Below, one piece after another: positions 17,805 to 41,506 of a stretch of 48,711 nt of DNA (position 1 is the first letter of the stretch; the number at the start of each line of letters is the position of its first letter). Below the pieces are notes generated by a model. The model did not search any database. It was not told where the DNA came from and worked only from the letters and a program-made list of their open reading frames with translations. This stretch comes from Betaproteobacteria bacterium (GTDB lineage: Bacteria > Pseudomonadota > Gammaproteobacteria > Burkholderiales > Burkholderiaceae_C), in NCBI GenBank assembly GCA_031411575.1, contig JANOBJ010000016.1, forward strand, positions 1 through 48,711. The letters are read 5' to 3'. Both the position numbers and the translations under genes were made by a program.

Positions 17805-17850
17805 TAGCAAACTATGACCGCTGGATGAGGACCACAAGCCAATTACAGGG
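17790..17850 (+). repeat. Family-A repeat copy A4, spanning the ligase stop codon
   Basis: TTGCTACTAAAATAATAGCAAACTATGACCGCTGGATGAGGACCACAAGCC. The ligase ends TTG CTA CTA AAA TAA within the core. Confidence 0.85.
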
Positions 17851-17877
17851 ATAATCATTCACTGGTACGATCATCGG

Positions 17878-18615: not shown

Positions 18616-18617
18616 CC

Positions 18618-19043: not shown

Positions 19044-19936
19044 AGCCCGCGCCCGTCCGGGGGCTGGCGCACGCCGCCGCAGCCGGGCCACTGCTGGCCG
19101 GCTGCGACTTCTCCAGCCGCCCCACGCGCAAAAAACCCATCGTTTTAGCCCTGGGGTCCGCATCCAGTGGTCGTTTGATGCTATTAAAAATAGAGCAATT
19201 TGACAGCCTGGAGGGCTTTGGCGGCTGGCTGCGCGCGCCCGCTGACTGGGTGGGTGCGTTTGATTTTCCCTTTGGCCTGCCGCGCGAGCTGGTCGAACAG
19301 CTGGGCTGGCCGACCGCGTGGGAAGCCTGCATGCGCCACTACGCGGGCTTGAGCCGCGAGGAGATTCGCGCCACCTTTGCCGCGTTTTGCGACGCCCGGC
19401 CAGTGGGAGGCAAATTCGCCCACCGCGCCACCGACCGGCCGGCCGGCGCCAGCCCGTCGATGAAATGGGTCAACCCGCCGGTGGCCTACATGCTGCACGC
19501 CGGGGTGCCGCTGCTGCTCGACGCGGGCGTGCACCTGCCCGGCCTGCACCCGGGCGAGCCCGCCAACCAGGACGCTGCCGGCCAGCCGCGCCGGGTCGCG
19601 CTGGAAGGCTACCCCGGCCTGCTGGCGCGGCAAATCCTGGGCAACCGGTCGTACAAAAGCGACGACAAGGCCAAGCAGACGCCAGACCGCCTGATCGCGC
19701 GCAAGGACGTGGTGACCGCGCTGGAGCACGGCCAGGCGCCGCTGGTGCAGCCGCTCGGCCTGCGTCTCAAACTCAGCCACGCGCAGCGCGACGCCCTGAT
19801 TGACGACGCCAGCGGCGACCGGCTGGACGCCGTGCTGTGCCTGGTGCAGGCGGCCTGGGCGCAGGCCCGGGGCGCACCGCGCTACGGGCTGCCCGAGCAG
19901 GTCGATCCGCTCGAAGGCTGGATCGTGGCTGCCTGA
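19040..19936 (+). CDS. DUF429 (predicted RNase H-fold) protein; start uncertain
   Basis: 'LLAGCDFSS.P....PIV.A' and 'FDFPFGLPRELV' are DUF429-like. A TTG at 19040 overlaps the BLUF stop (TTGA). The alternative ATG at 19178 lies inside repeat A5. Confidence 0.6.
   Translation: MKPAPVRGLAHAAAAGPLLAGCDFSSRPTRKKPIVLALGSASSGRLMLLKIEQFDSLEGFGGWLRAPADWVGAFDFPFGLPRELVEQLGWPTAWEACMRHYAGLSREEIRATFAAFCDARPVGGKFAHRATDRPAGASPSMKWVNPPVAYMLHAGVPLLLDAGVHLPGLHPGEPANQDAAGQPRRVALEGYPGLLARQILGNRSYKSDDKAKQTPDRLIARKDVVTALEHGQAPLVQPLGLRLKLSHAQRDALIDDASGDRLDAVLCLVQAAWAQARGAPRYGLPEQVDPLEGWIVAA
19128..19198 (-). repeat. Family-A repeat copy A5, inside the 5' region of the DUF429 gene
   Basis: Reverse complement is TTGCTCTATTTTTAATAGCATCAAACGACCACTGGATGCGGACCCCAGGGCTAAAACG. 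Confidence 0.8.
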
Positions 19937-21751: not shown

Positions 21752-21876
21752 GTGTCAGATGCCGTCAACGGGCTTCAAAACGGGGAGAGTTGCAACCGTA
21801 CCACACTCCGTGAAACTCAGGTGCATTTGCGGACGTGGCAGTACGCGAGCTAGCCGACACATACTACTTAGTAGTT

Positions 21877-21900
21877 AATTTGTACGTCTCGGTACAAATT
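21877..21900. promoter_or_regulatory. Perfect inverted repeat AATTTGTAC-N6-GTACAAATT (candidate operator)
   Basis: 9-bp arms with a 6-bp spacer, read directly from the sequence. Preceded by ACTAC-TTA-GTAGT (21863-21875). Confidence 0.4.
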
Positions 21901-21994
21901 GAACATAAAGTTCGCAAAAATTGCACAAACAAACTGGCTTTGGGGCTTGGACCTGTGGCATGCAAGCTTTGACGTGGGCAGGCGTTCGACATCT

Positions 21995-22014
21995 CTAAAT
22001 TTAGCTACTTAGTT
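21995..22014. promoter_or_regulatory. 10-bp palindrome CTAAATTTAG followed by CTACTTAGT (second copy of a 9-mer also at 21865-21873)
   Basis: Read directly from the sequence. Function unknown. Confidence 0.3.
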
Positions 22015-22271
22015 GTATATAGCGACCCAAGATTAAGCGTGTTTTAAGCCTAATTACAAAGAATTACGGCGATTATGTAGATTTTCACAATAGTCGGATG
22101 CTAGTCTCAAGTTACAAAAAAAGTTCCCCGCGAGTTCAGACTTTTTTGACGGCCGAAATGTGGTGACTGCCCAGATGGGTGGGCCACCCAGTTCGACAAC
22201 ACTTGAAGTCAGTCGCGGGGGCGATGCCAGTCTAAAACTGGCGTTAACCCTAAGTCGTTGGTGAGAACAAA

Positions 22272-23231
22272 ATGAGTGCGACGTCGTTGAATCACGAGAC
22301 CCTGAAGGTCGCTACCAGCGCCTCCAGGTCGTCTTCGATGCACCGGAACACCGGGCATCTGTCGAGTTCCCCTACCGCCGACGCGCCGCGAACGCGTCGG
22401 CCGTTTGGGGATTTCCTGGTCTATTTCGTCCTGTTCGGGCTGACCTGGGGCGTCTGGCAGATCAGCCGCATGGGGTTTTTCAGCGCCGGTGACGACGTTG
22501 GCTACTGGATTGGGGTGGCCGGCGGCGTCATGATGCTGATGCTGTTCACCTATCCACTGCGCAAGCACTTCCGGTTCACGCACCGCTGGGGCAAGGTCAA
22601 GTGGTGGTTCATGGTGCACATGCTGCTGGGGGTCGGCGGCCCGCTGCTGATCCTGCTGCATTCCACGTTTCAGGTCCGCTCGCTCAATGCCGGGGTCGCG
22701 CTGTACAGCATGATCATCGTGGCCCTGAGCGGCGTGATTGGCCGGTTCATCTATGGCCACATCAACCGTGGCCTGCACGGCGAGCAGAGCAGTTTCCGCG
22801 ATCTGCAGTCGCGCGCCGGCCTGCACCAGCGTGAAGCCCGCTCGCGCCTGCGCTTTGCGCCCGCCGTGGAAGCCCGCCTGATCGCGTTTGGCGAGCACGA
22901 ACTGACCGCACGGCCCGGCTTCCTGGCCAGCCTGCGCCGGGTGTTCTGGCTGCCCGTGAAGCAGTGGCTCACCTACCGGGCGTGCATGGCCGAGTTGCGC
23001 AAACCGATGCGCGACCTCGCGGTGCGCGGCGGCTGGGACGAACGCAGCCAGGCCAAGCGGGATCGCCTGGCCCGAAAGCTGGTTCGCCGCTACCTCAACG
23101 CCGTGGTGCGCGTGGCGCAGTTCACCGCCTACGAGCGGCTGTTCTCGCTGTGGCATGTCGCGCACCTGCCGTTTGTCTATCTCCTCGTGATCAGTTCGAT
23201 CGTTCACGTTGTAGCCGTCCACGCCTACTGA
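22272..23231 (+). CDS. 5-TM inner-membrane protein with two His-x13-His pairs (candidate di-haem b-type quinol/quinone oxidoreductase)
   Basis: TM3 'WWFMVHMLLGVGGPLLILLHS' and TM5 'WHVAHLPFVYLLVISSIVHVV' each carry His residues 14 positions apart. A ~115-aa Arg-rich soluble insert lies between TM4 and TM5. First gene after the AT-rich leader. Confidence 0.6.
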   Translation: MSATSLNHETLKVATSASRSSSMHRNTGHLSSSPTADAPRTRRPFGDFLVYFVLFGLTWGVWQISRMGFFSAGDDVGYWIGVAGGVMMLMLFTYPLRKHFRFTHRWGKVKWWFMVHMLLGVGGPLLILLHSTFQVRSLNAGVALYSMIIVALSGVIGRFIYGHINRGLHGEQSSFRDLQSRAGLHQREARSRLRFAPAVEARLIAFGEHELTARPGFLASLRRVFWLPVKQWLTYRACMAELRKPMRDLAVRGGWDERSQAKRDRLARKLVRRYLNAVVRVAQFTAYERLFSLWHVAHLPFVYLLVISSIVHVVAVHAY

Positions 23232-23244
23232 TCCGGGGAACCGG

Positions 23245-25194
23245 TTGTCACCATGGCTGCGACATCACTCCGTCGCCCTGATTCTGCAGGGCCTGCTCGC
23301 CTGCTGCCTGGCAGCCTTCGTGTTGCTGCTGCCCACGGCGGCCGCCGCCCAGAACATCGAGACGATTCTGGCGCCCGGCAAGCTGATTCAGGGTCACGCC
23401 AAATGGGAGCAGGAGTGCTCGCAGTGCCACGTCAAGTTCGACCGCAAGGCGCAGGACGGCCTGTGCCTGGCCTGCCACAAGGATTTGGGGGCTGATGTGC
23501 GCGCCAAAACCGGCTTTCACGGTCGCATGAAGCCGCAGGCATGCAATGTCTGCCACACCGACCACAAGGGTCGTGATGCCAAGATCGTGCTGCTCGACAA
23601 GAAGAAGTTTGACCACACGCTGACCGACTTCCAGCTGCGCGGCAAGCACCAGAAGACCGAGTGCGACAAGTGCCACGTGTCGGGCAAGAAGTACAGCGAG
23701 GCAGCGTCTGACTGCAACAGGTGCCACAAGAAGGACGACGTCCACAAGGGCTCGCTTGGGGCCAAATGCGCTGATTGCCACACCGAAAACAACTGGAAAG
23801 AAACCCGTTTCGACCACGAGAAAACGCGCTTCTCGCTGACCGGCAAGCACGCCGACGTCAAGTGCACCGATTGCCACAAGAACGGCGTCTACAAGGACAC
23901 GCCGCGCACCTGCATCGGCTGCCACAAGAAGGACGACGACAGCGCCAAGGGTCACAAGGGCCAGTTCGGCGAGAAATGCGAGACCTGCCACGGCACCAAG
24001 GCGTGGAAACCGTCCGATTTCAACCACGACACCGACACCAAGTACACCTTGCGCGGCAAGCACCGGACAACGGGCTGCACCGACTGCCACAAGGGCAACA
24101 TCTACCGCGTCAAGCTGAGCCAGGATTGCTACGCCTGCCACCAGAAGGACGACAAGCACAAGGAGTCGCTGGGCAAGGATTGCGGCAGCTGCCACAGCGA
24201 GCGTAGCTGGAAAGAGCCGCCCAAGTTCAACCACGACCAGACCAGCTTTCCGCTGCTGGGCAAGCACGACAAGGTGGAGTGCAAGGATTGCCACAAGAGC
24301 GCCATGTTCAAGGAGGCGCCCAAAGACTGCTATGGCTGCCACAAGAAGGACGACAAGCACGAAACCACGCTGGGCGAAAAGTGCGCGGACTGCCACTCAG
24401 AGCGCGACTGGAAGGTCACGACCGGCCGGTTCGATCACGACCGCACCAAGTTCCAGTTGCGCAACGCGCACGCGGAAAGCACGGTCAAGTGCAATGCCTG
24501 CCACAAGGACCTGAAGAGCTACCGCAAGACGCCGACCGATTGCTACAGCTGCCACAAGAAGGACGACAAGCACGAAGGCCAGCAGGGCAAGCAGTGCGAA
24601 ACCTGCCACAGCGACCGCACCTGGAAGACCACGCGGTTTGACCATGCGCAGACGCGTTTCCCGCTGACCGGCAAGCACGTGGCCACCAAGTGCAGCAGCT
24701 GCCACGAGACCAACCGCTTCAAGGACGCGCCGCGCGACTGCTACTCCTGCCACAAGAAGGAAGACAAGCACAAGCTCAAGTTCGGCGAAAAATGCGAGAG
24801 CTGCCACAACACCCGCGGCTGGCCGATCTGGGATTTTGACCACAACAAGCGCACCGAATACCGGCTGGACGGCAAGCACGTCAAGGTGGCGTGCGAAAGC
24901 TGCCACACCCAGCCGGCGCCCAAGGGCAAGGAAGCCGCGCCGCTGGGCAAGAACTGCATCACCTGCCACCGCAAGGATGACACCCACGACGGCCAGTTTG
25001 GCCCGCGGTGCGAGACCTGCCATGTAACCGAGAACTGGAAGAAGATCACCAGCCGCATCGGCGAACGGGCTGTGGTGCCAGGCGACTGGATTGTGGCGTT
25101 GATGTCGCCACTGGGCGAGGCCAGCCATTTCGCGCGTCGCTCAGACGCGGCAACCACCCGGCCAGCGGCCGACACCGTGGGGGTGCGGCGATGA
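23245..25194 (+). CDS. 24-haem c-type cytochrome (concatenated c7-like trihaem units), secreted
   Basis: 24 CXXCH motifs by manual count. Signal peptide '...LLLPTAAAAQ'. Repeating unit 'C..CHKKDDKH...G..C..CH....W....FDH..T.F.L.GKH....C..CH'. TTG start. Confidence 0.9.
   Translation: MSPWLRHHSVALILQGLLACCLAAFVLLLPTAAAAQNIETILAPGKLIQGHAKWEQECSQCHVKFDRKAQDGLCLACHKDLGADVRAKTGFHGRMKPQACNVCHTDHKGRDAKIVLLDKKKFDHTLTDFQLRGKHQKTECDKCHVSGKKYSEAASDCNRCHKKDDVHKGSLGAKCADCHTENNWKETRFDHEKTRFSLTGKHADVKCTDCHKNGVYKDTPRTCIGCHKKDDDSAKGHKGQFGEKCETCHGTKAWKPSDFNHDTDTKYTLRGKHRTTGCTDCHKGNIYRVKLSQDCYACHQKDDKHKESLGKDCGSCHSERSWKEPPKFNHDQTSFPLLGKHDKVECKDCHKSAMFKEAPKDCYGCHKKDDKHETTLGEKCADCHSERDWKVTTGRFDHDRTKFQLRNAHAESTVKCNACHKDLKSYRKTPTDCYSCHKKDDKHEGQQGKQCETCHSDRTWKTTRFDHAQTRFPLTGKHVATKCSSCHETNRFKDAPRDCYSCHKKEDKHKLKFGEKCESCHNTRGWPIWDFDHNKRTEYRLDGKHVKVACESCHTQPAPKGKEAAPLGKNCITCHRKDDTHDGQFGPRCETCHVTENWKKITSRIGERAVVPGDWIVALMSPLGEASHFARRSDAATTRPAADTVGVRR
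23700..25000 (+). repeat. Intragenic tandem periodicity (~190-220 bp, 64-73 aa, 3 CXXCH per unit)
   Basis: 'TGCCACAAGAAGGA(C/A)GAC' recurs near 23722, 23921, 24134, 24334, 24554, 24747 and 24965. Confidence 0.8.
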
Positions 25195-28100
25195 ACGCAG
25201 GGTTAAGCCGGTCCGGTTTCGGGGCACTGTTCGCCAAGTGGTGCGTGGCCTTGTTGCTTGTGGTCTGCGGCGCGCAGGCGTTTGCACAGGCCGGCGCGAG
25301 GAATTTCGACCACACCAAAACCGGTTTCGCGCTGACCGGCGTGCACATGAACCCGCGCTGCGAGTCGTGCCACATCAGCGGCGTGTTTAAGGGCACACCC
25401 AAAGACTGCGCCAGTTGCCATACGAGCGGCTTCCGCCAGGCGCGCGGCAACATGGTCATGCCGGCCAAGCACCTGCCGACCACCGCCGCCTGCGAGACCT
25501 GCCACAACACGCGTTCGTTCAAGGAAGTCAAGTTCAGCCACGTCGATGTCAAGCCGGGTACATGCGCCACTTGCCACAACGGCACGACGGCTATCGGCAA
25601 GCACGCGGCGCACATGCCGACACAGGCGGCCTGCGACACCTGCCACAAATCAACATCCACGTGGAAATCCGCCAAACCCGACCACAGCGCGTTTACCGCA
25701 ACGACCAACTGCGCGAGTTGCCACGGGTCCACGGCCACCGGCAAGTCGGCGAACCATATTCCTGTCGCGGCCAGTGTCAGCTGCCTGAGCTGCCATACCG
25801 TGACAGGCTGGAAGCCCACCAAGTTCAACCACACGCAAGTGGCCGTGGCCGGCCAGTGCGCCACCTGCCACAGCGGGGCGTTCCCGCCGGCCGACGGCAG
25901 GACCGCCAACCATATTCCGTACCAAAGCGTCAACGGCGTTGCCAACGCCGGCTGCGAGAGCTGCCACAAGGCGGGCTATACGGCATGGGCCCCGGCGACG
26001 TTCCACGGCAGCTTCTCTGTCACTGGCCAATGCGCCACATGCCACACCGGCAACAACCCCAAAGCGGTTGGCAAGCACCCAACGCACGTGCCCACGGCGG
26101 CAGCCTGCGAGACCTGCCACAAGACCACCGGCTGGAAAGGCGCCAAGCCCGACCACGCCAGCTTCACGGCCGCGACCAACTGCGCCACTTGCCACAACGG
26201 CACCAACGCCACGGGCAAGACGGCCGTGCACATCCCGGTGGCGGCCAACGTCAACTGCTTCAGCTGCCACAGCGTGGCGGGCTGGAAGCCCACCAAGTTC
26301 AACCACACGCAAGTGGCCGTGGCCGGCCAGTGCGCCACCTGCCACAGCGGGGCGTTCCCGCCGGCCGATGGCAAGACGGCCAACCACATCGTCTACCAGA
26401 ACATCACCGGCATTGGCGCCAACGCCAGCTGCGAGAGCTGCCACAAGGCTGGCTACACGGCCTGGGCGCCGGCCAAGTTCCACGCCAGCTACACCGTCAC
26501 GGCCCAGTGCGCCACCTGCCACACCGGGGCCAACCCGCTGGCCGTGGGCAAGCCGGCCAACCACCTGCCCACCACGGCGGCCTGCGAGACCTGCCACAAG
26601 ACCACCGGCTGGATCGGGGCGAAGGTTGATCACAGCGGATTCACGACGGCTACCAATTGCACCACTTGTCACAACGGCACGACGGCTACTGGCAAGCCCG
26701 TTGTGCACCCGGTGACAACCGCCAACTGCATCACGTGTCACACGACGGTCGCATGGACTGGCGCCAAGGTTGATCACACCAGCTTCACGGCAGCCACCAA
26801 TTGCGCGAGCTGCCACAACGGTGCAACCGCAACCGGCAAGCCGGTGGTGCATGTCCCGACCACCGCCAATTGCTTCAGCTGCCACACGGTCGCGGGCTGG
26901 AAGCCCACCAAGTTCAACCACACCCAAGTGACGGTTACGGGCCAATGTTCGACTTGCCACAGTGGCGCGTTCCCGCCGGCCGATGGCAGGCCCACCAACC
27001 ACATCCCGTATCAGACACTGAGCGGCGTTGCCATCACCAACTGTGACAGCTGCCACAAGGGTGGCTACGCAGCATGGGCGCCGGCCCGGTTCCACAGCAG
27101 CGTCTCTGTCAGCAACCAGTGTGCAAGCTGCCACACCGGCAACTTCCCGCCCGCCGTCGGCAAGCCCAATACCCCGATCCACGCCGGGGTGACCAATTGC
27201 GAGAGCTGCCACAAGACCACGGGCTGGGCGGGTGCCAAGGTGGACCACTCGACGTTCACCATGGCGACCAACTGCTCGAGCTGCCACAACGGGACAACAG
27301 CTACCGGCAAACGCGGAAACCACATCCCGACTGCCGTCAACTGCTTCAGCTGCCACAGCACGACCGGCTGGATTCCCACCAAGTTCAACCACAGCCAGGT
27401 CGTCACGGCCAACCAGTGCTCGACTTGCCACAGTGGCGCGTTCCCACCCGCCGATGGCCGGCCGATCAGTCATATCCCGTATCAGCTGCTGAGTGGCGTC
27501 GCGGTCACCAACTGCGATACCTGCCACAAGGGCGGATTTGCGGCTTGGACCCCCGCACGGTTCCACGGCTCGGTGTCGGTCAGCAACCAGTGCCATACCT
27601 GCCACATGGGTACCTACTCACCGGGGCAACGCCGACCCAATAACGTCACGCACAGTGCGATCACCAGTGGTTGCGAGAGCTGCCACAAGTCAACCGCCAG
27701 CTGGTTGACGGTGGTGTTTACCCACTCGCCAGCGAATGCCGTGGGCACCGGTACCTGTGATACCTGCCACAACGGTACGTCCGCCAAAGGCAAGCCGGCG
27801 ACCCACATCCCGGTGCCGGCTGGCGTTGCAAAGTGCGATTCCTGCCACCGTTCGCAGACCAGCTTCGCGACGGCGGTCACGATGAACCATAGCGTGGTCA
27901 CGACCGCCACCTGCAAGTCTTGCCACAACGGCAGTTACACCTCCCAGGGGACGACCGGTGCGCTCGCCAAACCGGTCAACCATATTCCGGAGGCGCAGTT
28001 GCTTAACGGTGCCAACATGGACTGCAAGGCCTGTCATACGAGCACGACCAGCTGGGGGACGATGCGAATGGACCACAACGCCAGCCAGGGTGGTGGTGCC

Positions 28101-28265
28101 GGATGGTGCAAGTCATGCCACGCATCAGGAACCAATTTCCTGGGCAATATGGACAAGAAATCCCTGACCCACAGAACCAAAACGCCAGCTGCGATTGACT
28201 GTTCCGAGGCGGGTTGCCACCGTCCCCTGGGTAGCCGGGGGACCCCATACAGCAGGTGGAACTGA
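25191..28265 (+). CDS. 36-haem c-type cytochrome, Thr/Ala/Asn/Gly-rich, secreted (candidate cell-surface component)
   Basis: 36 CXXCH motifs plus one CX4CH ('CSEAGCH') by manual count. ATGA overlap with the upstream gene. Signal peptide '...VVCGAQAFAQ'. The portion of ORF 25008.. upstream of 25191 overlaps the previous gene. Confidence 0.9.
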   Translation: MNAGLSRSGFGALFAKWCVALLLVVCGAQAFAQAGARNFDHTKTGFALTGVHMNPRCESCHISGVFKGTPKDCASCHTSGFRQARGNMVMPAKHLPTTAACETCHNTRSFKEVKFSHVDVKPGTCATCHNGTTAIGKHAAHMPTQAACDTCHKSTSTWKSAKPDHSAFTATTNCASCHGSTATGKSANHIPVAASVSCLSCHTVTGWKPTKFNHTQVAVAGQCATCHSGAFPPADGRTANHIPYQSVNGVANAGCESCHKAGYTAWAPATFHGSFSVTGQCATCHTGNNPKAVGKHPTHVPTAAACETCHKTTGWKGAKPDHASFTAATNCATCHNGTNATGKTAVHIPVAANVNCFSCHSVAGWKPTKFNHTQVAVAGQCATCHSGAFPPADGKTANHIVYQNITGIGANASCESCHKAGYTAWAPAKFHASYTVTAQCATCHTGANPLAVGKPANHLPTTAACETCHKTTGWIGAKVDHSGFTTATNCTTCHNGTTATGKPVVHPVTTANCITCHTTVAWTGAKVDHTSFTAATNCASCHNGATATGKPVVHVPTTANCFSCHTVAGWKPTKFNHTQVTVTGQCSTCHSGAFPPADGRPTNHIPYQTLSGVAITNCDSCHKGGYAAWAPARFHSSVSVSNQCASCHTGNFPPAVGKPNTPIHAGVTNCESCHKTTGWAGAKVDHSTFTMATNCSSCHNGTTATGKRGNHIPTAVNCFSCHSTTGWIPTKFNHSQVVTANQCSTCHSGAFPPADGRPISHIPYQLLSGVAVTNCDTCHKGGFAAWTPARFHGSVSVSNQCHTCHMGTYSPGQRRPNNVTHSAITSGCESCHKSTASWLTVVFTHSPANAVGTGTCDTCHNGTSAKGKPATHIPVPAGVAKCDSCHRSQTSFATAVTMNHSVVTTATCKSCHNGSYTSQGTTGALAKPVNHIPEAQLLNGANMDCKACHTSTTSWGTMRMDHNASQGGGAGWCKSCHASGTNFLGNMDKKSLTHRTKTPAAIDCSEAGCHRPLGSRGTPYSRWN
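25800..27500 (+). repeat. Intragenic tandem modules of 471-615 bp (157-205 aa, ~6-7 CXXCH each)
   Basis: The anchor 'GCTGGAAGCCCACCAAGTTCAACCAC' (GCTGGATTCCCACC... in the fourth copy) is at 25807, 26281, 26896 and 27367. Positions 25807-25894 and 26281-26368 are identical over 88 nt. Confidence 0.85.
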
Positions 28266-28283
28266 TTGGCGAGGGCTTTCCTG

Positions 28284-28312
28284 CTTTGCCAATGGGGCAA
28301 TTGCTGGCAAAG
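28284..28312 (+). other. Intercistronic stem-loop CTTTGCCA-N13-TGGCAAAG
   Basis: Perfect 8-bp stem. The loop contains the palindrome GCAATTGC. Lies in the only sizeable gap (92 nt) of the cytochrome cluster. Confidence 0.4.
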
Positions 28313-28357
28313 TCCTGTCGGTGACAAAAATCAACAGTTCGTAAAATCTGCCACAAC

Positions 28358-30757
28358 ATGAAATTCCCCCTGCGCCTGCTGGCCGCGCCGATTGTTCTGG
28401 CTTCAGCCTGTCCGCTCGCATTCGCTCAGTTGATCGAAGACATCGAGATTCGGCGCGAGGGGTCCAATGCCATCGCCAGCGTTCGATTTGTAACGGCCAT
28501 CCAGTTTCAGCGCGTCACCACCTCCCGCGCCGGCGACCTGGGGCAGGCGTTCTATGACGTATTGCCCAGTCGCCAGACCCTGAGCCTCGTCAGCGGCCAG
28601 CGCCGCGTGCCGGGAGCTGGCTCGATTCCCGAAATCGAGGTGACCGACGAACCTGTTGGGAAAGCGAATCTGAGTCGCAAGCTCATTATTCGTTTCTCCG
28701 CACCCACACGTTTCCGCATCCGGGCGGGGCGTGGCAATCGCAGCATTGAAGTCGTGATGGAAGGGCTTGGCGATTCGGTGCGCCTCGCTGCCGTCACCGC
28801 CCCTGTCAGCGCCGCACCGCCCCAACAAAACTATATCGTTACCCTGCAGTCATCGGCGGACCCGGGACATAACCTACAAGGATCCGTTCCGGCCAGGTTG
28901 CAGCAGTACCAGACATTCACCTCCCGCAGGACGGTGGACGGCAAGACGCTGTACGACATCAATCTTGGCTATTTCGGTACGCTGGCTGACGCCGAAGAAG
29001 CACGCGAGATTCTGGTTTCGCGGTTTCCCCAAGCGACGATTGCCGCTCTGCAGGCCCCTGCCGGCACCGATTCCGGGCCAGGCAGCGCGCCGGCGGAAGT
29101 CGAAGCCAATGCCGCCAATTTGCTGGCGGTTGCACAGGCGGCCTCCGACCGCGGCGATTTTGCAGCATCGCTCGATCCCTTGAGCCAGTTGCTGAACCTT
29201 CCCCCCAATACGTCGTCGCGGCGGGCACAGGAACTGATTGGCTTGTCGCGCCTCAAGCTGGGCGACTCCGTGCGGGCCCGCGCCGAGTTTGAAGCGTTCC
29301 TGAATCTTTACCCCACAGGCGCGGACAGTGATCGGGTACGGGACGTCCTGGCGACGGTTCCAGCAGCCCCCCCAACTGCGGCGGCAGCGCCTCCGCCGCC
29401 GCCCGCCTCCAACTGGAGCGGGTCGGTCTCCACGTTCTTTTTTGGTGGGCAGTCCAAAGTGCGCAGCCAGGAATTTCTGGATTCACCGATCAGCGGACTG
29501 CCTGAACTGCAGGGCGAAAACACGATTTCGGGGACGGACCAGAAGCAGGTTCAGACCAACGTGGACCTCAACTGGCGCCGTCGCGACGCCGAAGCTGACC
29601 AGCGCTTCGTGTTTCGCGACTCCTACACCGCTGACCTGTTGCCCAACGGAAGAAACAGGAACCGCTTGTCGGCGCTGTACTACGACCACAAATCATTCAC
29701 CAATGGCACCAGCTTTCGCGTCGGGCGGCAGTCGCCGACTGGTGGCGGCGTGCTGTACCGGTTCGACGGGTTGCAGGCCGGGTACACGTTTCGCCCGAAG
29801 TGGAAGGCCAATGCCGTCTTTGGCGCGCCGACCGATGACTTGCTTCAAACGCGCAGGCGCCTGTATGGCGCGTGGATAGACGCCGAAGCTCTGACCAACG
29901 AAATCAGTGGGAGCCTTTACTTCAACCAGCAGACCATCGACAGCGAAGTGGACCGACGGGCCGTGGGGACCGAACTGCGCTATTTCAGTGGTGGCGTGTC
30001 GCTGTCAGCGCAGTTCGACTACGACGTGGTGCTCAAGGGTCTCAATATTGCTTCCCTGCAGGGTACCTGGCAATTGCCGGACACCACGGTTTTCAACTTC
30101 CTGTACGACCGGCGCACGACGCCGCTCCTTTCATTGGGGAACACCCTCTTTTTCCAGAACCCCGCGCTGGTGACACCGGCTCAACGCATCCAGGACTTGC
30201 TGACCACCTCGTCGATCTCGCAATTGCGGGAGCAAGTGAAGGGCATTACGGCATATCAGACGCAGGGTTTGGTGGGCGTGACAACACCGCTTGCGAAGAA
30301 CTGGCAAATCGGCGCCGATATCCGGCTGACCAATGTGGGCGAAGTCCGACCGGTGCCGATCATTTTGCCCAACGGGCAAGCGAGCACCGGAAACCAATGG
30401 AGCGTGGGCGGTCAACTCATTGGCACCAATCTGTACTCACAGCGTGATACCCATGTTCTCAGCGCAACATTGCTTAAATCGCCTACTTACAGCGGCTATT
30501 TGCTCTCCTATAACAACCTGACGACGATTGGCGAAGGTTGGCAAATCGAGCCATCGCTCAGGTTCTCCCATCAGAACGAAAATACCGGTGCCCGAACGGT
30601 TCGCTGGGCGCCGGGCTTGCGGGTAACGTACAAACTCATGCAGCAGGTATCGCTGGAGTCTGAACTGTCCTACGAGCGATCCAAGAGAACCTCTCCCGTG
30701 CTAAATGAAACCTCCGACCGGCTTTTTTACTACCTCGGTGCCCGCTACGACTTCTGA
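28358..30757 (+). CDS. Outer-membrane beta-barrel protein with N-terminal periplasmic domains (AMIN-like, SPOR-like, TPR-like)
   Basis: Signal peptide 'MKFPLRLLAAPIVLASACPLAFAQ'. SPOR-like 'YIVTLQSSADPG...TLYDINLGYFGTLADAEEAREIL'. TPR-like 'GDSVRARAEFEAFLNLYP'. Pro/Ala linker. ~450-aa C-terminal region with alternating hydrophobicity that ends 'YYLGARYDF'. Confidence 0.7.
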   Translation: MKFPLRLLAAPIVLASACPLAFAQLIEDIEIRREGSNAIASVRFVTAIQFQRVTTSRAGDLGQAFYDVLPSRQTLSLVSGQRRVPGAGSIPEIEVTDEPVGKANLSRKLIIRFSAPTRFRIRAGRGNRSIEVVMEGLGDSVRLAAVTAPVSAAPPQQNYIVTLQSSADPGHNLQGSVPARLQQYQTFTSRRTVDGKTLYDINLGYFGTLADAEEAREILVSRFPQATIAALQAPAGTDSGPGSAPAEVEANAANLLAVAQAASDRGDFAASLDPLSQLLNLPPNTSSRRAQELIGLSRLKLGDSVRARAEFEAFLNLYPTGADSDRVRDVLATVPAAPPTAAAAPPPPPASNWSGSVSTFFFGGQSKVRSQEFLDSPISGLPELQGENTISGTDQKQVQTNVDLNWRRRDAEADQRFVFRDSYTADLLPNGRNRNRLSALYYDHKSFTNGTSFRVGRQSPTGGGVLYRFDGLQAGYTFRPKWKANAVFGAPTDDLLQTRRRLYGAWIDAEALTNEISGSLYFNQQTIDSEVDRRAVGTELRYFSGGVSLSAQFDYDVVLKGLNIASLQGTWQLPDTTVFNFLYDRRTTPLLSLGNTLFFQNPALVTPAQRIQDLLTTSSISQLREQVKGITAYQTQGLVGVTTPLAKNWQIGADIRLTNVGEVRPVPIILPNGQASTGNQWSVGGQLIGTNLYSQRDTHVLSATLLKSPTYSGYLLSYNNLTTIGEGWQIEPSLRFSHQNENTGARTVRWAPGLRVTYKLMQQVSLESELSYERSKRTSPVLNETSDRLFYYLGARYDF

Positions 30758-30767
30758 TGCACGCGCA

Positions 30768-31400
30768 ATGCCAACGCTGAAGGTTTCCGGGCTGGCCTGC
30801 CGCCGTGGAAATGAATGGCTGTTTCGGGGGCTGGATTTTGCGATCTACCCGGGGCAGATGGTGTGGCTGCGAGGCCATAATGGCAGCGGGAAAACGACGC
30901 TGCTTCGTGTGGTGTCAGGACTGACTCAGGCCGATGAAGGCGAACTCGTGTGGAACCCAAAGCACGCGGAGACTAGTGCGGGTGTCGGCAAGCTGGTTTA
31001 TATCGGCCATCTGAATGCCATGAAAGACGATCTGACCGTGTGCGAATCATTGCAGTTTGTTGCGCGCCTGCACAGCAGGGACGGTAGCGAGGTGGCTGCC
31101 TTGACCGCCTTGAGGCAGTTGGGCATGCACCATCGCCGCCATGCAGCGGTACGCACGCTGTCCCAGGGCCAGCGACGGCGTGCCGCACTGGCCAGGCTGG
31201 CGCTCGAACGCAGCCCGTCTTTGTGGGTGCTGGATGAACCCTACGATGCACTGGACACGGCTGGCATTCAGACGGTCAACGCGCTGCTTGTCAAGCATCT
31301 TGAAATTGGCGGAAGTGTGCTGTTGACCTCGCACCTGGCGCTGGGTACGGATGCACCGGCAACCCGGGAACTGTTGCTGGACAAAGGTATCGTTGCATGA
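30768..31400 (+). CDS. ccmA: Cytochrome c biogenesis ATP-binding export protein
   Basis: Walker A 'GHNGSGKTTLLR', signature 'LSQGQRRR', Walker B 'LWVLDEP'. Starts 10 nt after the barrel gene stop. Confidence 0.9.
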   Translation: MPTLKVSGLACRRGNEWLFRGLDFAIYPGQMVWLRGHNGSGKTTLLRVVSGLTQADEGELVWNPKHAETSAGVGKLVYIGHLNAMKDDLTVCESLQFVARLHSRDGSEVAALTALRQLGMHHRRHAAVRTLSQGQRRRAALARLALERSPSLWVLDEPYDALDTAGIQTVNALLVKHLEIGGSVLLTSHLALGTDAPATRELLLDKGIVA

Positions 31401-32068
31401 CCGTCAGCGTACTGATGACGGTCGCTGGCCGCGACCTGCGACTGGCTGGGCGGCGCAGAATAGAAGCTTTGTTGCCGGTGGCGTTTTTTGTGGTGGCAGC
31501 GAGTCTGTTTCCGCTGGGTGTTGGGCCGGAGCCCCAGATGCTGCGACAGATTGCCTCAGGGGTTGTATGGGTATGCGCACTTCTGGCCGCGATGTTGTCG
31601 TTGAATACCCTTTACTCGGGGGATTTTGCTGACGGATCGCTTGAGCAAATGCTGTTGTCAAGCCAATCCGTTGTTCTGATCGCGGCCGGAAAAGCACTCG
31701 CCCATTGGGTGCTTACGGGTGTCCCGTTGATTTTGGTGACGCCATTGTTGGGTATCTTTTTTGGTATGAGTTCTGAATCCATCGCCGTTCTTGCACTGAC
31801 CTTGCTGCTGGGAACCCCTGTCCTGAGCTTGCTGGGGAGTGTTGGCGCAGCGCTGACCCTCGGACTTCGGAGCGGTGGTGTGCTGATTCTTCTTCTGGTT
31901 CTGCCACTGTGCATCCCCGTGTTGATCTTTGGTGCGGGGGCCGTGTCGGCAGTAGACGCCGGTGTGTCGCCTCGTGGTCACCTGTCCCTTTTGGCCGCAT
32001 TGCTGCTGCTGGCGGGGTTGGGTGCGCCGCCTGCAACGGCCGCGGCATTGCGAATCTCTTCGGCCTGA
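31397..32068 (+). CDS. ccmB: Haem exporter protein B
   Basis: ATGA overlap with ccmA, six hydrophobic segments, 'FADGSLEQMLLS' CcmB motif. Confidence 0.9.
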   Translation: MTVSVLMTVAGRDLRLAGRRRIEALLPVAFFVVAASLFPLGVGPEPQMLRQIASGVVWVCALLAAMLSLNTLYSGDFADGSLEQMLLSSQSVVLIAAGKALAHWVLTGVPLILVTPLLGIFFGMSSESIAVLALTLLLGTPVLSLLGSVGAALTLGLRSGGVLILLLVLPLCIPVLIFGAGAVSAVDAGVSPRGHLSLLAALLLLAGLGAPPATAAALRISSA

Positions 32069-32092
32069 ACCACCGGCTGCGCGACCAAAACC

Positions 32093-32854
32093 ATGGCAAC
32101 GTCACTTCGCTTCTTTACGTTTGCAGCGCCTTCGCGCTTTTATGCGCTCGCGGGCGCGCTTCTTCCCTGGCTGTGGGCCCTGACAGCGGCATTGACACTT
32201 GCCGGGCTGTACATCGGCTTTTTTGTGGCGCCGACGGATGCCACACAAGGCGATGCCTACCGGATCATCTTTATTCATGTCCCGGCGGCCTGGATGTCCA
32301 TGCTGCTGTATCTGGTGATGGCGGGCTGGGCCGTGATTGGCTGGGCGTTTAATGCCCGCCTGGCGTCCATGGTCGCCCGGGCGATTGCGCCAACGGGTGC
32401 GATGTTCACCTTCATCGCGCTGTGGACGGGCGCCTTGTGGGGAAAACCCACTTGGGGCACGTGGTGGGTGTGGGATGCGCGGCTCACGTCGGAACTTATC
32501 CTCCTGTTCCTGTATCTCGGATATATCGCGTTGGTTGAGTCGATTGATGAACAGCGCCGCGCAGACAGTGCCGGAGCGTTGCTCGCATTGATCGGTGTCA
32601 TCAATATTCCGATCATCTATTTCTCCGTCAAATGGTGGAATACGCTGCATCAGGGTGCCACCATCAGTGCGACGGCAGCGCCCAAGATGGCGAGCACGAT
32701 GCTGACGGCGATGTTGTTGATGACAGCAGCGTGTTGGGCGTACTCGTTCGCGGTTGTTTTCATGCGGGCGCGTGCCATAGTCATGGAGCGTGAACGTCAC
32801 GCGGATTGGGCTTCGGAGTTGACGCAGCAGCAAGCGGTGAGGGCACGGGCATGA
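32093..32854 (+). CDS. ccmC: Haem exporter protein C
   Basis: WWD motif 'WGKPTWGTWWVWDARLT'. Confidence 0.93.
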   Translation: MATSLRFFTFAAPSRFYALAGALLPWLWALTAALTLAGLYIGFFVAPTDATQGDAYRIIFIHVPAAWMSMLLYLVMAGWAVIGWAFNARLASMVARAIAPTGAMFTFIALWTGALWGKPTWGTWWVWDARLTSELILLFLYLGYIALVESIDEQRRADSAGALLALIGVINIPIIYFSVKWWNTLHQGATISATAAPKMASTMLTAMLLMTAACWAYSFAVVFMRARAIVMERERHADWASELTQQQAVRARA

Positions 32855-33021
32855 ACTGGGGTAGCGCGAGTGAGTTTTTTGCAATGGGCGGGTATGGTCT
32901 CTACGTGTGGGGTTCGTATGCGGTGGCAGGGCTCGTGCTGGCAATCGAACCGCTCTTGGCGTTTCGCAGGCACAACCGTGCACTACGCGACATCCGCTCA
33001 ATCGACGAACAGGAGCATTGA
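32851..33021 (+). CDS. ccmD: Haem exporter protein D
   Basis: 56-aa single-TM protein ('YGLYVWGSYAVAGLVLAIE'). ATGA overlap with ccmC. Start set at the internal ATG at 32851. Confidence 0.8.
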   Translation: MNWGSASEFFAMGGYGLYVWGSYAVAGLVLAIEPLLAFRRHNRALRDIRSIDEQEH

Positions 33022-33483
33022 ATGAAACCTCGACACAAACGTCTGGCGATCGCTGGCGCGGTACTTGCCGTCGTGGGCGTTGCAGTGGCATTGGTACTCA
33101 ATGCCTTCAACAGCAATCTTGTATTCTTTTACTCGCCGTCGCAGATCGCCGCCAAGGAAGCGCCAACCGGGCGCACCTTTCGCCTGGGCGGCCTTGTCGA
33201 GGCCGGCAGTGTCAAGCGTGATGGCGTGCAGGTCAGTTTCGTCGTGACCGACACCGCCAAAACCGTCCCGGTGCGGTACCAGGGCATCCTTCCTGATCTG
33301 TTCAAGGAGGGCAAAGGTGTGGTGGCCCAGGGCCAACTGCGCAATGGGGTGTTTGAAGCCCGCGAGGTGCTCGCCAAACACGACGAAAACTACATGCCAC
33401 CAGAAGCGGCGGAAGCCTTGAAGCGCGCGGGCGCCGTCAACGGCAAGGTGGCTGAGTCAGTGGTAACGGAGCAAAAGCGATGA
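33022..33483 (+). CDS. ccmE: Cytochrome c-type biogenesis haem chaperone
   Basis: N-terminal TM anchor and '[12 protein letters not shown]' haem-binding His-x3-Tyr. Confidence 0.93.
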
Positions 33484-35468
33484 TTCCTGAGATTGGGCAC
33501 TTCCTGCTCTGGCTGGCACTGGGGGTATCACTGGTTCTGGGCACATTGCCGATGGCGGGCGCGGCGCGCCGCAATACGGAGTGGATGTTGCTGGCCCGGC
33601 CGGCGGCCTACACGCTGTTCGTGCTGATAGGCCTGGCCTTTCTTTGCCTGGTGGTGTCTTTCGTGCGGCACGATTTTTCCGTGATGAACGTCGCATCCAA
33701 TTCGAATTCCGCACTGCCGCTGCCCTATCGCATCGCGGCGAGTTGGGGTAGCCACGAAGGGTCATTGTTGTTGTGGGCCCTGATGCTGAGCGGATGGACG
33801 TTTGCCGTGGCGCGCTTCAGCGCCCATTTGCCGCTGCCCGTGCTGGCACGAACACTGGCGGTGATGGGATTGATCAGCGTTGGCTTCCTGCTGTTCATGC
33901 TGCTGACGTCAAACCCGTTTGACCGCCTGTTCCCGGCACCTGCGGACGGGCGCGATCTGAACCCCCTGCTGCAGGACCCGGGCATGGTGTTCCACCCCCC
34001 GTTGCTGTACATGGGCTATGTCGGGTTCTCTGTGGCGTTTGCATTTGCCATTTCAGCATTGATTGGCGGCAATCTCGATTCGACTTGGGCGCGCTGGACG
34101 AGGCCTTGGACAACCGTGGCGTGGATGTTCCTGACTGTCGGCATCGCGCTTGGAAGCTGGTGGGCCTACTACGAACTGGGCTGGGGCGGATGGTGGTTCT
34201 GGGATCCGGTCGAGAACGCGTCATTCATGCCCTGGCTGATCGGGACCGCCCTGATTCATTCCCTTGCCGTGACCGAAAAGCGGGGCAGCTTCAAATCCTG
34301 GACGGTCCTGCTGGCGATCGTGGCGTTCTCGTTGTCATTGCTCGGTACATTTCTGGTCCGCTCCGGTGTGTTGTCGTCCGTGCATGCGTTTGCGACCGAC
34401 CCGAAGCGCGGCCTCTTCATCCTGGCATTCCTGACCATCGCCGTGGGTGCTTCGCTGGCGCTTTACGCGTGGCGTGCGCCCAAAGTGGGGCTGGGCGCCA
34501 GGTTTTCACTGGTGTCTCGCGAAACGGCTCTCCTCGGGAACAACGTGATGCTGGTGGTGGCCGCTGCGGCGGTTTTGCTGGGTACGCTCTACCCCTTGCT
34601 GCTGGACGCATTGGGCATGGGCAAGATCTCGGTGGGTCCGCCGTATTTTGATTCCGTGTTCATGCCGCTGATGGCGCCAGCGCTGTTCTTGATGGGTATC
34701 GGCCCTATCACCCGTTGGCGGGAGGCCGAGTTGCCCGACATTGCGCGCCGATTGCGTTGGGCGATGGCTGTGGCCATCATCGCCGCGCTGGCCACTGGCT
34801 GGATAGCCGGCCGCATTTCCGTGGTGGCGACCATCGGGCTTGTCATGGCGTTCTGGGTGATGGCGTCGGTGGCCACTGATTTCTGGGACAAGGTGCACAC
34901 GCCTGGCGGCGGCTTGACCGGTGTGCCCCGCAAAATCCGCCAATTGCCGCGTGCAACCGTGGGCATGATGGTGGCGCATCTGGGCGTCGCGGCTTTTTGC
35001 TTTGGCGTCACGATGGTCAAAACGTACGAAGTCGAGCGTGACGTACAGATGGAAATCGGCGACAGCACGACAGTCAATGGCTACACCTTCACCTTCAGGG
35101 GCGCGCGCGAGGTAGCAGGGCCCAACTACGCGGCCATGCGCGGGCTCGTGGAAGTCACGCGTGACGGGAAGAAAATTACGGACATGCGGCCGGAAAAGCG
35201 CGTCTACCGCGTCCAGCAAAACCCGATGACGGAAGCCGCCATTTACCCCCGTGTGACCGGCGATCTCTACGTGTCCCTGGGGGAGCCCACTGAGCGCGGT
35301 GCGTGGATCGTCCGCGTTTATGTCAAGCCGTTCATTGACTGGATCTGGGGTGGCTGCCTGATCATGGCGCTGGGTGGTTTGCTGGCTGCCACAGACCGGC
35401 GATATCGCTCCAAGGTCAGGAAGGATCAGCCTGAGGCGTCCACCGGTACTGCGGGCGCTGCGGTATGA
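33480..35468 (+). CDS. ccmF: Cytochrome c haem lyase subunit
   Basis: 662-aa polytopic protein with WWD motif '[14 protein letters not shown]'. Confidence 0.95.
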
Positions 35469-35995
35469 AACAACTCAAGTTTCTGGTTCCGCTGGCCTTC
35501 TTCTTCGGCCTGGTCGCCTTTCTTGCGGCAGGACTGAAGCTGGATCCCAAGGAGGTGCCGTCACCGCTGATCAACAAGCCCGCGCCGTCATTCGCACTGA
35601 CCCGCCTGGACGACGCTGCGCAGACGATACGCAGGGAGGATCTGCTGGGTAAAGTCTGGATGCTCAACGTGTGGGCGTCCTGGTGCGTGGCGTGCCGCGA
35701 AGAGCATCCGCTACTGGTTGAGTTCTCGGCGAAAAAACTGGTCCCGATCTACGGCCTCAACTACAAGGACGAGCGCGGTGCCGGTAGCCAATGGCTGTCG
35801 CGTTTTGGCAATCCGTACCAGGCGTCGTTGTTTGATCAGGATGGGCGTGTGGGCATCGACTGGGGTGTCTACGGGGTACCCGAGACGTTCGTTGTGGACC
35901 GCGCGGGCATGATCCGCTTCAAGCACATCGGTCCGCTCACACCCGAAGTGATCCGCACGCAGGTTGAACCGCTGGTGAGGCAGCTCAATGGCTAA
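35465..35995 (+). CDS. ccmG: Thiol:disulfide interchange protein DsbE/CcmG
   Basis: 'WASWCVACREEHP' thioredoxin CxxC and 'GVYGVPETF'. Confidence 0.93.
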   Translation: MKQLKFLVPLAFFFGLVAFLAAGLKLDPKEVPSPLINKPAPSFALTRLDDAAQTIRREDLLGKVWMLNVWASWCVACREEHPLLVEFSAKKLVPIYGLNYKDERGAGSQWLSRFGNPYQASLFDQDGRVGIDWGVYGVPETFVVDRAGMIRFKHIGPLTPEVIRTQVEPLVRQLNG

Positions 35996-36446
35996 GTGGC
36001 TCATCCTGATCATGCTGGCCTTCGGGGCGTGCTTGCTGCAGGCCAAGGAGGCTGCGCCTGCGTCCGAAGACCCGGTGCTGGAAGCCCGCATGGTGAAGAT
36101 TGCGGCAGAGCTGCGTTGCCTGGTCTGCCAGAACCAGACGATTGCCGACTCGCACGCCGGGCTGGCCGTTGATTTGCGCAACCAGGTGCGCGAAATGCTG
36201 CGCCGGGGCGAAACCGACCGGCAGATCATCGACTACATGACGGCACGCTACGGTGATTTTGTGCTGTATCGGCCTCCTCTGAAAAACACCACGGCCCTGC
36301 TTTGGTTTGGGCCGGGCGTGCTGCTGGTCGGGGGATTGGTAACCTTGTTCTTCGTGCTGCGTAGACGCAGCCGGATGGACCCGGAACTCTTCGAGGCGGA
36401 TGAACCGGAGGTGAACGATGACATCCGCCCCACTACGGCCAAATAG
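35988..36446 (+). CDS. ccmH: Cytochrome c-type biogenesis protein CcmH
   Basis: 'LRCLVCQNQTIADS' LRCxxC motif, signal peptide, C-terminal TM. Confidence 0.92.
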   Translation: MAKWLILIMLAFGACLLQAKEAAPASEDPVLEARMVKIAAELRCLVCQNQTIADSHAGLAVDLRNQVREMLRRGETDRQIIDYMTARYGDFVLYRPPLKNTTALLWFGPGVLLVGGLVTLFFVLRRRSRMDPELFEADEPEVNDDIRPTTAK

Positions 36447-36477
36447 ACAGCCAAATACACGGCCATACTGAATCACT

Positions 36478-41461: not shown

Positions 41462-41506
41462 GGTGTCTCTCCAGATCGTTGTGGCGCCACTGTAACCACT
41501 GCACAA

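Follow-up and report, generated by a model that had tools for sequence, protein, structure and literature searches.

The 48,711-nucleotide (nt) stretch analysed here, hereafter the window, comprises positions 1 to 48,711 of the forward strand of contig JANOBJ010000016.1 (GenBank assembly GCA_031411575.1), deposited as Betaproteobacteria bacterium; the host is an uncultured member of the Comamonadaceae close to Hydrogenophaga. The window contains four consecutive open reading frames (ORFs), labelled genes A to D, which encode an inner-membrane protein (IMP), two giant multihaem cytochromes c (MHCs) and an outer-membrane (OM) protein, and which together constitute a copy of PCC3, a porin-cytochrome cluster predicted to conduct electrons across the cell envelope (Table 1). 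The ORF listing and a script placed all four genes on the plus strand, and the spacing reported in a first-pass annotation made from the nucleotide sequence was exact: 13 nt between A and B, an ATGA overlap between B and C, and 92 nt between C and D. The initiation codon of gene B is TTG, with GGGGA located 8 nt upstream. Among the other ORFs of 60 codons or more in the window, one has a CXXCH motif, and only a single copy of it; CXXCH densities such as those of B and C cannot arise by chance.

Table 1. Coordinates of the features described in the text (nt positions of the window).
Feature	Position	Strand	Basis
Gene A, PCC3 inner-membrane protein, 319 residues	22272..23231	+	motifs, AlphaFold2 model, homologue alignment
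Gene B, putative periplasmic 24-haem cytochrome c, 649 residues	23245..25194	+	Pfam, motif count, repeat map
Gene C, putative extracellular 36(+1)-haem cytochrome c, 1024 residues	25191..28265	+	Pfam, TIGR04257, motif count
C-terminal module of C with CX4CH site (DCSEAGCHRPLGSRGTPYSRWN), residues ~1001-1024	28190-28262	+	tail comparison
Gene D, outer-membrane protein, 799 residues	28358..30757	+	AlphaFold2 model, Foldseek
System I cytochrome c maturation operon ccmABCDEFGHI	30768..37758	+	Pfam; ccmD from ORF and comparison with loci L083/L084
ccmA	30768-31400	+	
ccmB	31397-32068	+	
ccmC	32093-32854	+	
ccmD	32851-33021	+	
ccmE	33022-33483	+	
ccmF	33480-35468	+	
ccmG/dsbE	35465-35995	+	
ccmH	35988-36446	+	
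ccmI/cycH	36478-37758	+	
FerPyr, membrane-anchored Fe-S flavoprotein, 429 residues	37807..39096	+	domain/motif search, locus comparison
AT-rich intergenic region, 520 nt, between divergent SulP gene and gene A	21752..22271	.	sequence read
Perfect palindrome AATTTGTAC-N6-GTACAAATT within SulP/gene A intergenic region	21877-21900		repeat search
ATP-dependent DNA ligase	15090-17804	+	
BLUF (blue-light FAD sensor) domain protein, small	18615-19043	+	
'Ligase-associated DNA damage response DEXH helicase'	40724-44059	+	TIGR04121, 1113 bits

The two cytochromes were characterised by motif counts, composition and family searches. The script counted 24 CXXCH motifs in B, one site per 27.0 residues, and 36 CXXCH motifs in C plus one CX4CH motif at residue 1004, one site per 27.7 residues, reproducing the manual counts and the density of one haem per 27-28 residues given earlier. 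Both proteins, like D, start with signal peptides that have Ala-x-Ala-type cleavage sites, as annotated for the cytochromes. In B, the signal peptide is followed by eight c7-like trihaem units of ~68 residues with the pattern F[DN]H...GKH... and three CXXCH motifs with CHKKDDKH, and the protein is rich in Lys (12.8%) and Asp (8.8%), as had been noted. The haems of B call for 24 distal ligands; as the protein offers 27 His residues beyond those in the motifs but just 3 Met, all of its haems could be bis-His ligated. B scored 97.8 bits against Pfam Cytochrome_C7 (PF14522, cut-off 24.8) in five stretches, and phmmer retrieved no PDB chain at E ≤ 1e-3. C carries a signal peptide that lacks a lipobox, a c7-like unit at the N terminus and haem sites spaced by ~25 residues; it scored 204.9 bits against PF14522 in 16 stretches and 82.5 bits against TIGR04257, the c7-type trihaem domain (cut-off 40). 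The likeness to c7-polymer cytochromes in the first-pass annotation is therefore right at the domain level. Searches of PDB sequences with C gave weak matches only, to MtrC (9eov, 4e-07) and cytochrome c554. The composition of C (T 13.6, A 13.0, G 9.0, S 7.9, N 5.8, D 2.0 and E 1.1%; T, A, S, G and N sum to 49%) agrees with its description as rich in Thr, Ala, Asn and Gly, but 'nearly uncharged' slightly overstates the case, as Lys and Arg make up 7.2%.

The AlphaFold2 model of A (predicted local distance difference test, pLDDT, 79.5) is all-helical, and the model together with the hydrophobic segments places five transmembrane (TM) helices at residues 45-67, 75-97, 110-131, 138-165 and 289-318, the number expected for the five-TM inner-membrane protein predicted earlier. 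An Arg-rich helical insert of ~120 residues separates TM4 from TM5 in the model. The product contains WFMVH-x13-H at residues 112-130 in TM3, SGVIG at 153 in TM4 and WHVAH-x13-H at 294-312 in TM5. An IMP profile search of a library of 1.84 billion representative proteins retrieved 2859 clusters (50% identity level) at E ≤ 1e-3. As most homologues are 297-301 residues long, compared with 319 residues for A, the true start of A may be Met23. When A was aligned with 130 representatives, each 28-56% identical to it, H116, H130, H298 and H312 were conserved in 125-130 of the 131 sequences, and W112, W294 and S153-G154-x-x-G157-R in 125-131. The alignment is strong evidence that the four His residues would be ligands for two b-type haems, one near each face of the membrane. 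No Pfam or NCBIfam family matched A.

In the model of D (pLDDT 82.3 overall and ~90 across the barrel), a signal peptide (residues 1-23), a β-sandwich domain (26-134), a SPOR-like α/β domain (159-230) and a TPR domain (245-331) precede a barrel of ~22 strands (353-799) that ends in the β-signal-like YYLGARYDF. Foldseek matched the model with probability 1.00 to OM barrels, including the FimD and PapC ushers, MOMP, porins, TonB-dependent receptors and BcsC, which upholds the earlier view of this 799-residue protein as an OM barrel, although these matches were generic, with TM-scores of 0.2-0.3 and ~10% identity. MtrB was not among the top 50 matches, and searches of porin families in Pfam and NCBIfam gave only weak generic matches to OMP_b-brl and LamB. 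More than 744 homologues of D were retrieved. TPR scores were obtained for all 26 homologues scanned for domains, and SPOR and OMP_b-brl scores for 12 each; the cleavage site AFA↓Q was invariant in 91 homologues.

PCC3 was defined by He et al. (2017) as a cluster of IMP, periplasmic MHC, extracellular MHC and porin, with an IMP of ~300 residues and five TM helices that carries SGxxG on TM4 and Wx3Hx13H on TM3 and TM5, and with median haem numbers of 21 for the periplasmic MHC and 34 for the extracellular MHC, which is repetitive and rich in T, S, A and G (PMC5566968). The same study reported PCC3 to be non-homologous to the Mtr/Mto/Pio and Geobacter porin-cytochrome systems. Every sequence-level feature of that definition was found in A-D: B has the ~21-27 haems, ~66-residue repeats and low residue/haem ratio of the periplasmic MHC, and C the composition and internal repeats of the second one. 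The coordinates of the units in B are nearly those of the published repeat map of the 24-haem periplasmic MHC of L. cholodnii SP-6 (113-171, 181-245, 255-313 ...). The resemblance to PCC3 proposed in the first-pass annotation thus held, but its confinement to Gallionellaceae did not, as the cluster was defined from genomes of several Fe(II) oxidisers including Leptothrix and was found in Alpha-, Beta- and Gammaproteobacteria (PMC5566968).

Homology to PCC3 was judged against the sequences of two loci, L055 and L087, and for SP-6 by the published repeat coordinates. L087 is a mine-drainage contig with a Gallionellaceae-type cluster, whose IMP falls into one 90%-identity cluster with a protein of Sideroxyarcus emersonii. 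Gene order in L087 was the same as in the window, and all four proteins were homologous, with identities of 39% for the IMP (1e-62), 51% for the 24-haem MHC (E = 0), 38% for the second MHC (2e-91) and 32.5% for the porin (2e-86); this is the Burkholderiales-Gallionellales synteny comparison that the first-pass annotation had called for. In Leptothrix discophora (L055), the porin was 49% and the IMP 48% identical. Because A-D are homologous to the Gallionellaceae-type cluster and carry the defining features, membership in PCC3 is secure. A porin-profile scan of 185,579 species genomes yielded 80 related loci; those with a genus- or family-level title all fall in Burkholderiales except L022, the record of which is titled Chitinophaga pinensis. 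The genera included Hydrogenophaga, Polaromonas, Rhodoferax, Piscinibacter, Roseateles, Rubrivivax, Curvibacter and, as L. discophora, Leptothrix, and the best porin identity was 69%. Gene order was identical in every related locus that spans the interval from IMP to porin.

The two cytochromes vary differently among these loci. For B, a count of 24 haems recurs in 32 of 38 related loci, the others having 21, 27, 28 or 30; this near-fixed length fits a wire spanning the periplasm over a fixed distance (a 'ruler'). Orthologues of C carry 12-58 haems, and the second cytochrome is sometimes split into two genes. Gene C itself contains a tandem duplication of 477 nt (159 residues, 6 haems) at 25767-26680 with 82% DNA identity, and a second duplication, of a 144-nt unit with 74% identity, was observed within 25767-26888; such tandem duplications are recent and fit the range of haem numbers in the orthologues. 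The C terminus follows the consensus DCSxSGCH[RK]PLGxxGxxYxxW[DN]. CX4CH lies within the last 32 residues of 67 multihaem ORFs from the related loci, 59 of which also end in YxxW, and this tail is kept regardless of haem number (8-58). As it was found in 67 tails, CX4CH is a genuine conserved site, and the end that bears it is likely a docking point at the barrel or at a partner, while the unconstrained length of C fits an external wire. As in the PCC3 literature, B is predicted to reside in the periplasm and C outside the cell. A metagenomic relative, L081 (1-2617), has a called product 2881 residues long; with haems as dense as in C, it would carry roughly 100 of them, a figure extrapolated from a gene most of which lies beyond the locus stretch compared.

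Downstream of the cluster, the start of ccmA lies 10 nt after the stop of D and opens a System I cytochrome c maturation operon, the genes of which matched the Pfam families ABC_tran, CcmB, Cytochrom_C_asm, CcmE, CcmF_C, Redoxin, CcmH and TPR_CcmH_CycH+Ig_CycH. The porin gene and ccmA are 5-307 nt apart in 42 of the 75 related loci with enough downstream sequence, and in other loci a CycH/CcmI-like TPR gene is all that occupies the ccm position. The ccm genes are probably on the same transcript as A-D.

The ccm operon is followed, after a gap of 48 nt, by the gene for an iron-sulphur (Fe-S) flavoprotein, designated FerPyr. The protein has an N-terminal TM helix followed by RRRQRR, with its redox domains on the cytoplasmic side, two cluster motifs that carry another residue at the position of the second Cys (CxxSxxCxxxCP and CxxHxxCxxxCP, kept in 58-59 of 59 loci), and FAD and NAD(P)H GxGxxG folds of the YpdA / TrxR-like-FNR type. 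Having no CxxC, FerPyr is not a disulfide reductase. In 60 of the 66 loci that could be evaluated, its gene is a neighbour of the PCC3(+ccm) block. Five arrangements occur: immediately behind the porin gene, behind a CycH-like gene, behind a full ccm operon, convergent, or divergent from the IMP gene. Of five independent contexts retrieved from FerPyr, four contained PCC3 genes, and the fifth (L083) starts at a contig end with only ccm genes upstream. In L086 (Burkholderiaceae metagenome-assembled genome, JAWKYG010000012.1), a 614-residue ORF at 17638-19482 directly follows a 976-residue PCC3 porin and joins a CcmH/CycH-type TPR region (residues 20-145) to Fe-S (236-279) and flavoprotein (346-607) regions; this fusion may be an artefact of sequencing or gene calling. 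FerPyr was absent beside the Gallionellaceae-type cluster of L087. FerPyr may be a cytoplasmic redox partner of A, and so a candidate fifth component, or an accessory of CcmI-dependent maturation. All-against-all ORF clustering of the 80 loci, in which shadow ORFs dominate the high-GC DNA, picked out no further conserved neighbour. In L081, L082 and one ENA contig, genes for DUF2844, DUF3443 and a protein of ~510-550 residues lie between the porin/CycH genes and FerPyr; the last of these has a TonB C-terminal domain in L081, and ExbB/ExbD genes occur 3′ of FerPyr in L081 and L082. The TonB, ExbB and ExbD genes of these variants hint at an energised OM component.

What the data show is a PCC3 cluster, in its gene order, its motifs and domain architecture, its homology and synteny and its predicted folds; we put the probability that A-D form a continuous haem wire across the whole envelope at about 0.7. 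Haem loading, localisation, complex formation and electron flow would then be as follows. Two b-haems held between TM3 and TM5 of A would pass electrons between the periplasmic face and a partner on the cytoplasmic side, either the quinone pool or, possibly, FerPyr. B, as a rigid chain of eight c7 trihaem domains, would bridge the periplasm and enter the barrel of D with its distal end; GSU1996 has 12 haems and is 12 nm long, and scaling from it would give B a length of ~24 nm. The barrel of D would insulate the junction between B and C, with the SPOR-like and TPR domains holding D to the cell wall and to partners, and C, docked through its CX4CH module, would extend a wire of 36-37 haems and variable length outside the cell. 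All 61 haems would be attached by the Ccm system encoded downstream.

Several points weigh against such a wire. The cluster was still called 'functionally unverified' in papers of 2025-2026, and in the literature searched no member of PCC3 had been purified, localised or mutated (PMC12442390, PMC13386937), as the first-pass annotation had surmised. S. lithotrophicus ES-1 has two PCC3 clusters, and expression of both fell on Fe(II), given as Fe(II)-citrate or FeCl2 (PMC8788666); Slit_1448, the 'extracellular' cytochrome of the Slit_1446-1449 cluster, was undetected in proteomes (PMC12016527). For C, the extracellular placement is drawn from composition and analogy, because the protein lacks a lipobox and genes for a secretion system are missing from its surroundings. 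The predicted barrel of D is smaller than that of MtrB, which has 26 strands, and a c7 chain would have to thread it. When the model of A was compared with the PDB by Foldseek, the best match had E = 0.15, to ABC transporters with a TM-score of 0.16, and a profile of 58 IMPs had no match among all PDB sequences at E ≤ 10. Since no solved dihaem protein was matched, dihaem-b binding by A is read from the motif, and since both the fold and the profile searches of the PDB were empty, its analogy to ferric-reductase-domain (FRD) and NOX proteins stays at the level of the motif.

As to the direction of flow in these heterotrophic or hydrogenotrophic hosts, we slightly favour outward or bidirectional transfer over dedicated Fe(II) oxidation, because of the host range, the ES-1 expression data and the typically low potential of all-bis-His c7-type haems. 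The same hardware could instead be dedicated to uptake, as an Fe(II) or mineral oxidase through which electrons drawn from extracellular Fe(II), minerals or cathodes pass via B and A to the quinone pool, which is the model drawn in the PCC3 literature; we regard this as possible but rather doubtful. It draws on the discovery of PCC3 in Fe(II) oxidisers, where the cluster is common, with 26 complete and 11 partial clusters in 103 Gallionellaceae genomes and others in Leptothrix groups 1 and 2 (PMC9900912, PMC13386937), and on the IMP of PCC3 copy 2, which was up in iron-oxidising cells of Sideroxydans CL21 (PMC12442390). The homology of the window cluster to the Gallionellaceae-type cluster would also suit it, but the PCC3 genes of ES-1 responded in the opposite sense, as described above, and no Cyc2 or Mto genes were found within the window. 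The 80 loci, moreover, belong mostly to Hydrogenophaga, Polaromonas, Rhodoferax, Piscinibacter and Roseateles, which to our knowledge are not known as lithotrophic Fe(II) oxidisers, and uptake from Fe(II) would run uphill into low-potential bis-His c7 haems. An alternative entry for electrons is a split NOX/FRE-like oxidoreductase for NAD(P)H and an extracellular acceptor, with FerPyr docked on the Arg-rich cytoplasmic insert of A and a path NAD(P)H → FAD → Fe-S → haem b → haem b → B → C that bypasses quinones, or runs in reverse with a low-potential donor. The anchor, Fe-S motifs and nucleotide-binding folds of FerPyr, the lack of CxxC, its conserved place beside PCC3 even in ccm-free loci and in one locus divergent from the IMP gene, the recurrence of PCC3 genes in its independent contexts, and the two Hx13H motifs on TM3 and TM5, which mirror the ferric-reductase domain (PMC5566968), all speak for such a path. 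Yet FerPyr is missing from the Gallionellaceae-type locus, and its tightest pairing is with a CycH/CcmI-type TPR protein, to which it is fused in one case; this points to maturation. Ten long IMP representatives included no fusion to FerPyr, their N-terminal extensions carrying TPR, SPOR or nothing and never Fe-S or flavin domains. No FRD homology was detectable in the IMP, and the search output was far larger for the FerPyr family than for that of the IMP (>8000 versus 2170). We therefore consider the split oxidoreductase improbable, and grade in the same way the wider reading that the Burkholderiales PCC3 is, instead of a four-gene conduit, a self-contained module of ~15 genes (IMP, two giant cytochromes, TPR/SPOR-porin, Ccm and flavoprotein) wiring NAD(P)H or ferredoxin to the exterior, or the reverse, with the quinone bypassed.

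Another possibility is that the cytochromes serve mainly as an electron store (capacitor) or redox buffer in the periplasm or at the surface, with D as a TPR-porin that exports or anchors C, in the manner of an usher or a BcsC/PgaA-like pore, instead of sheathing a wire. A storage role has been raised for these proteins (PMC7399161, PMC9900912), D does combine TPR, SPOR-like and barrel domains with best Foldseek matches to the ushers FimD and PapC, and also to BcsC, and the haem number of C shifts freely between close relatives, as if capacity mattered over geometry. The Foldseek matches of the barrel are generic, however, and a defined through-path is favoured both by the conserved linkage with a dihaem-type IMP and by a B of almost constant length. 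Storage as the main function seems quite unlikely. By far the least probable reading makes A-D a diverged form of MtrCAB/MtoAB/PioAB or of Geobacter OmaB-OmbB-OmcB; at the level of sequence it is effectively refuted for the former and improbable for the latter. C did produce sub-threshold matches to the DmsE/MtrA and OmcA/MtrC models and to Pfam MtrC/MtrF domains II/IV, besides the weak PDB match to MtrC, and a hidden Markov model (HMM) flagged a Hydrogenophaga porin as OmbB-like (PMC7399161). The full-length NCBIfam models nevertheless all stayed below their cut-offs: TIGR03508 (DmsE/MtrA decahaem) gave 133.5 bits for C and 18.5 for B (cut-off 192.2), TIGR03507 (OmcA/MtrC decahaem) 104.5 bits for C (209.3), and the GSU2203-family model 85.6 bits (325). 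Membership in Mtr/Mto was rejected on these scores, in line with the distinction from Mtr/Pio/Mto made in the first-pass annotation. D also lacks a match to MtrB/PioB or another porin family, and the cluster departs from these systems in its haem numbers, its c7 repeats and its dedicated IMP. The transenvelope wire is our preferred reading of A-D.

The region upstream of gene A, between it and the divergent SulP gene, is a probable promoter or regulatory region of the cluster, and the palindrome within it is a possible binding site for a regulator; no match to a known consensus was recognised for the palindrome. A consensus scan of 21.6-31.5 kb gave no convincing plus-strand promoter, with counts at or below the shuffle expectation, and no terminator between the cluster genes, including the D/ccmA junction. 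Co-transcription of A-D is inferred from spacing. An Rfam scan of the entire window gave no matches. Genes for an ATP-dependent DNA ligase and a ligase-associated DEXH helicase are usually adjacent. In the window, they are 23 kb apart with the PCC3-ccm block in between, and G+C content is 0.58-0.63 at 28-36 kb compared with 0.63-0.71 over 0-22 kb and 36-48 kb; the block was possibly inserted between the two genes. A small BLUF-domain gene beside GTP cyclohydrolase I lies ~3 kb upstream of the cluster, and as a BLUF gene was near the cluster in only 4 of the 80 loci, it is probably unrelated.

PCC3 is among the most widespread predicted systems for extracellular electron transfer without experimental support, and its direction, substrate and inner-membrane coupling matter for iron cycling, groundwater geochemistry and bioelectrochemistry. 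The window adds a full, intact copy in a Hydrogenophaga-like lineage, and the cultivable carriers Hydrogenophaga aromaticivorans D2P1 (L013), Polaromonas jejuensis NBRC 106434 (L005), Roseateles (L042, L074) and Leptothrix discophora (L055) make the question testable. The four conserved His residues of A, the fixed 24-haem B and the probable C-terminal docking module of C provide handles, and the flavoprotein and CcmI-type chaperone encoded in tight linkage with them offer clues to the feeding and maturation of the system. Should the flavoprotein link prove functional, the accepted quinone-pool model of PCC3 would change.

Known systems resemble the cluster to different degrees. FRD proteins (NOX/FRE/MsrQ; PF01794) share with A two Hx13H pairs on two TM helices that could hold a haem near each face and so let electrons cross the membrane, whereas A has five helices instead of six, the ~120-residue helical insert before the last helix and no fused dehydrogenase; neither Pfam, PDB-profile nor Foldseek searches matched A to PF01794, so that only the Hx13H spacing is common. 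MtrCAB (Shewanella), MtoAB (Sideroxydans) and PioAB (Rhodopseudomonas) are alike in concept, with a periplasmic multihaem cytochrome in an OM barrel and an optional surface cytochrome. The window differs from them in its 24 and 37 haems instead of 10, arranged in c7-type trihaem repeats, in a barrel of ~22 instead of 26 strands with extra periplasmic domains, in a dedicated dihaem-type IMP in place of CymA/ImoA, and in a C that has no lipoprotein signal. The Geobacter c7 polymers (GSU1996/GSU0592; TIGR04257, PF14522) share tandem c7 trihaem domains, ~27 residues per haem and the predicted linear 'nanowire', but B has eight domains instead of four, possibly all-bis-His ligation with almost no Met, and a place in a porin/IMP cluster.

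The cluster type and its Burkholderiales version have already been published. Arbour et al. (2020) described, in Hydrogenophaga 'Burkholderiales S13' and Rifle Burkholderiales, a porin preceded by 24- and 49-haem cytochromes, 49 being the count in the Hydrogenophaga bin (PMC7399161). Their cluster is like that of the window in lineage and in having a 24-haem 'type 1' and a haem-variable 'type 2' cytochrome before a large porin; the porin was classed as OmbB-like by HMM, and the IMP, ccm operon and flavoprotein are unmentioned. The Rifle genome GWF1_66_17 corresponds to locus L002, with 24 and 40 haems and a porin 68% identical to D. What the window adds is the ccm and FerPyr linkage, which is unmentioned in the PCC3 literature searched (no proof of novelty), and the β-sandwich, SPOR-like and TPR domains of the porin and the C-terminal CX4CH module of C, which were likewise not found there. 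Closest of all is PCC3 itself, as known from ES-1 (Slit_1446-1449), L. cholodnii SP-6 and a survey of Gallionellaceae (PMC9900912). The ccm operon and Fe-S flavoprotein gene follow the porin gene in the window and are both missing from the Gallionellaceae-type L087, the N-terminal ~220 residues of D are unalignable with the Gallionellaceae porin, and C has 36+1 haems compared with 22 in SP-6 and 28 in ES-1. Gene content, gene order, ~27 residues per haem, the ~22-strand barrel and the eight ~66-residue repeats of the 24-haem MHC are shared by these clusters and A-D.

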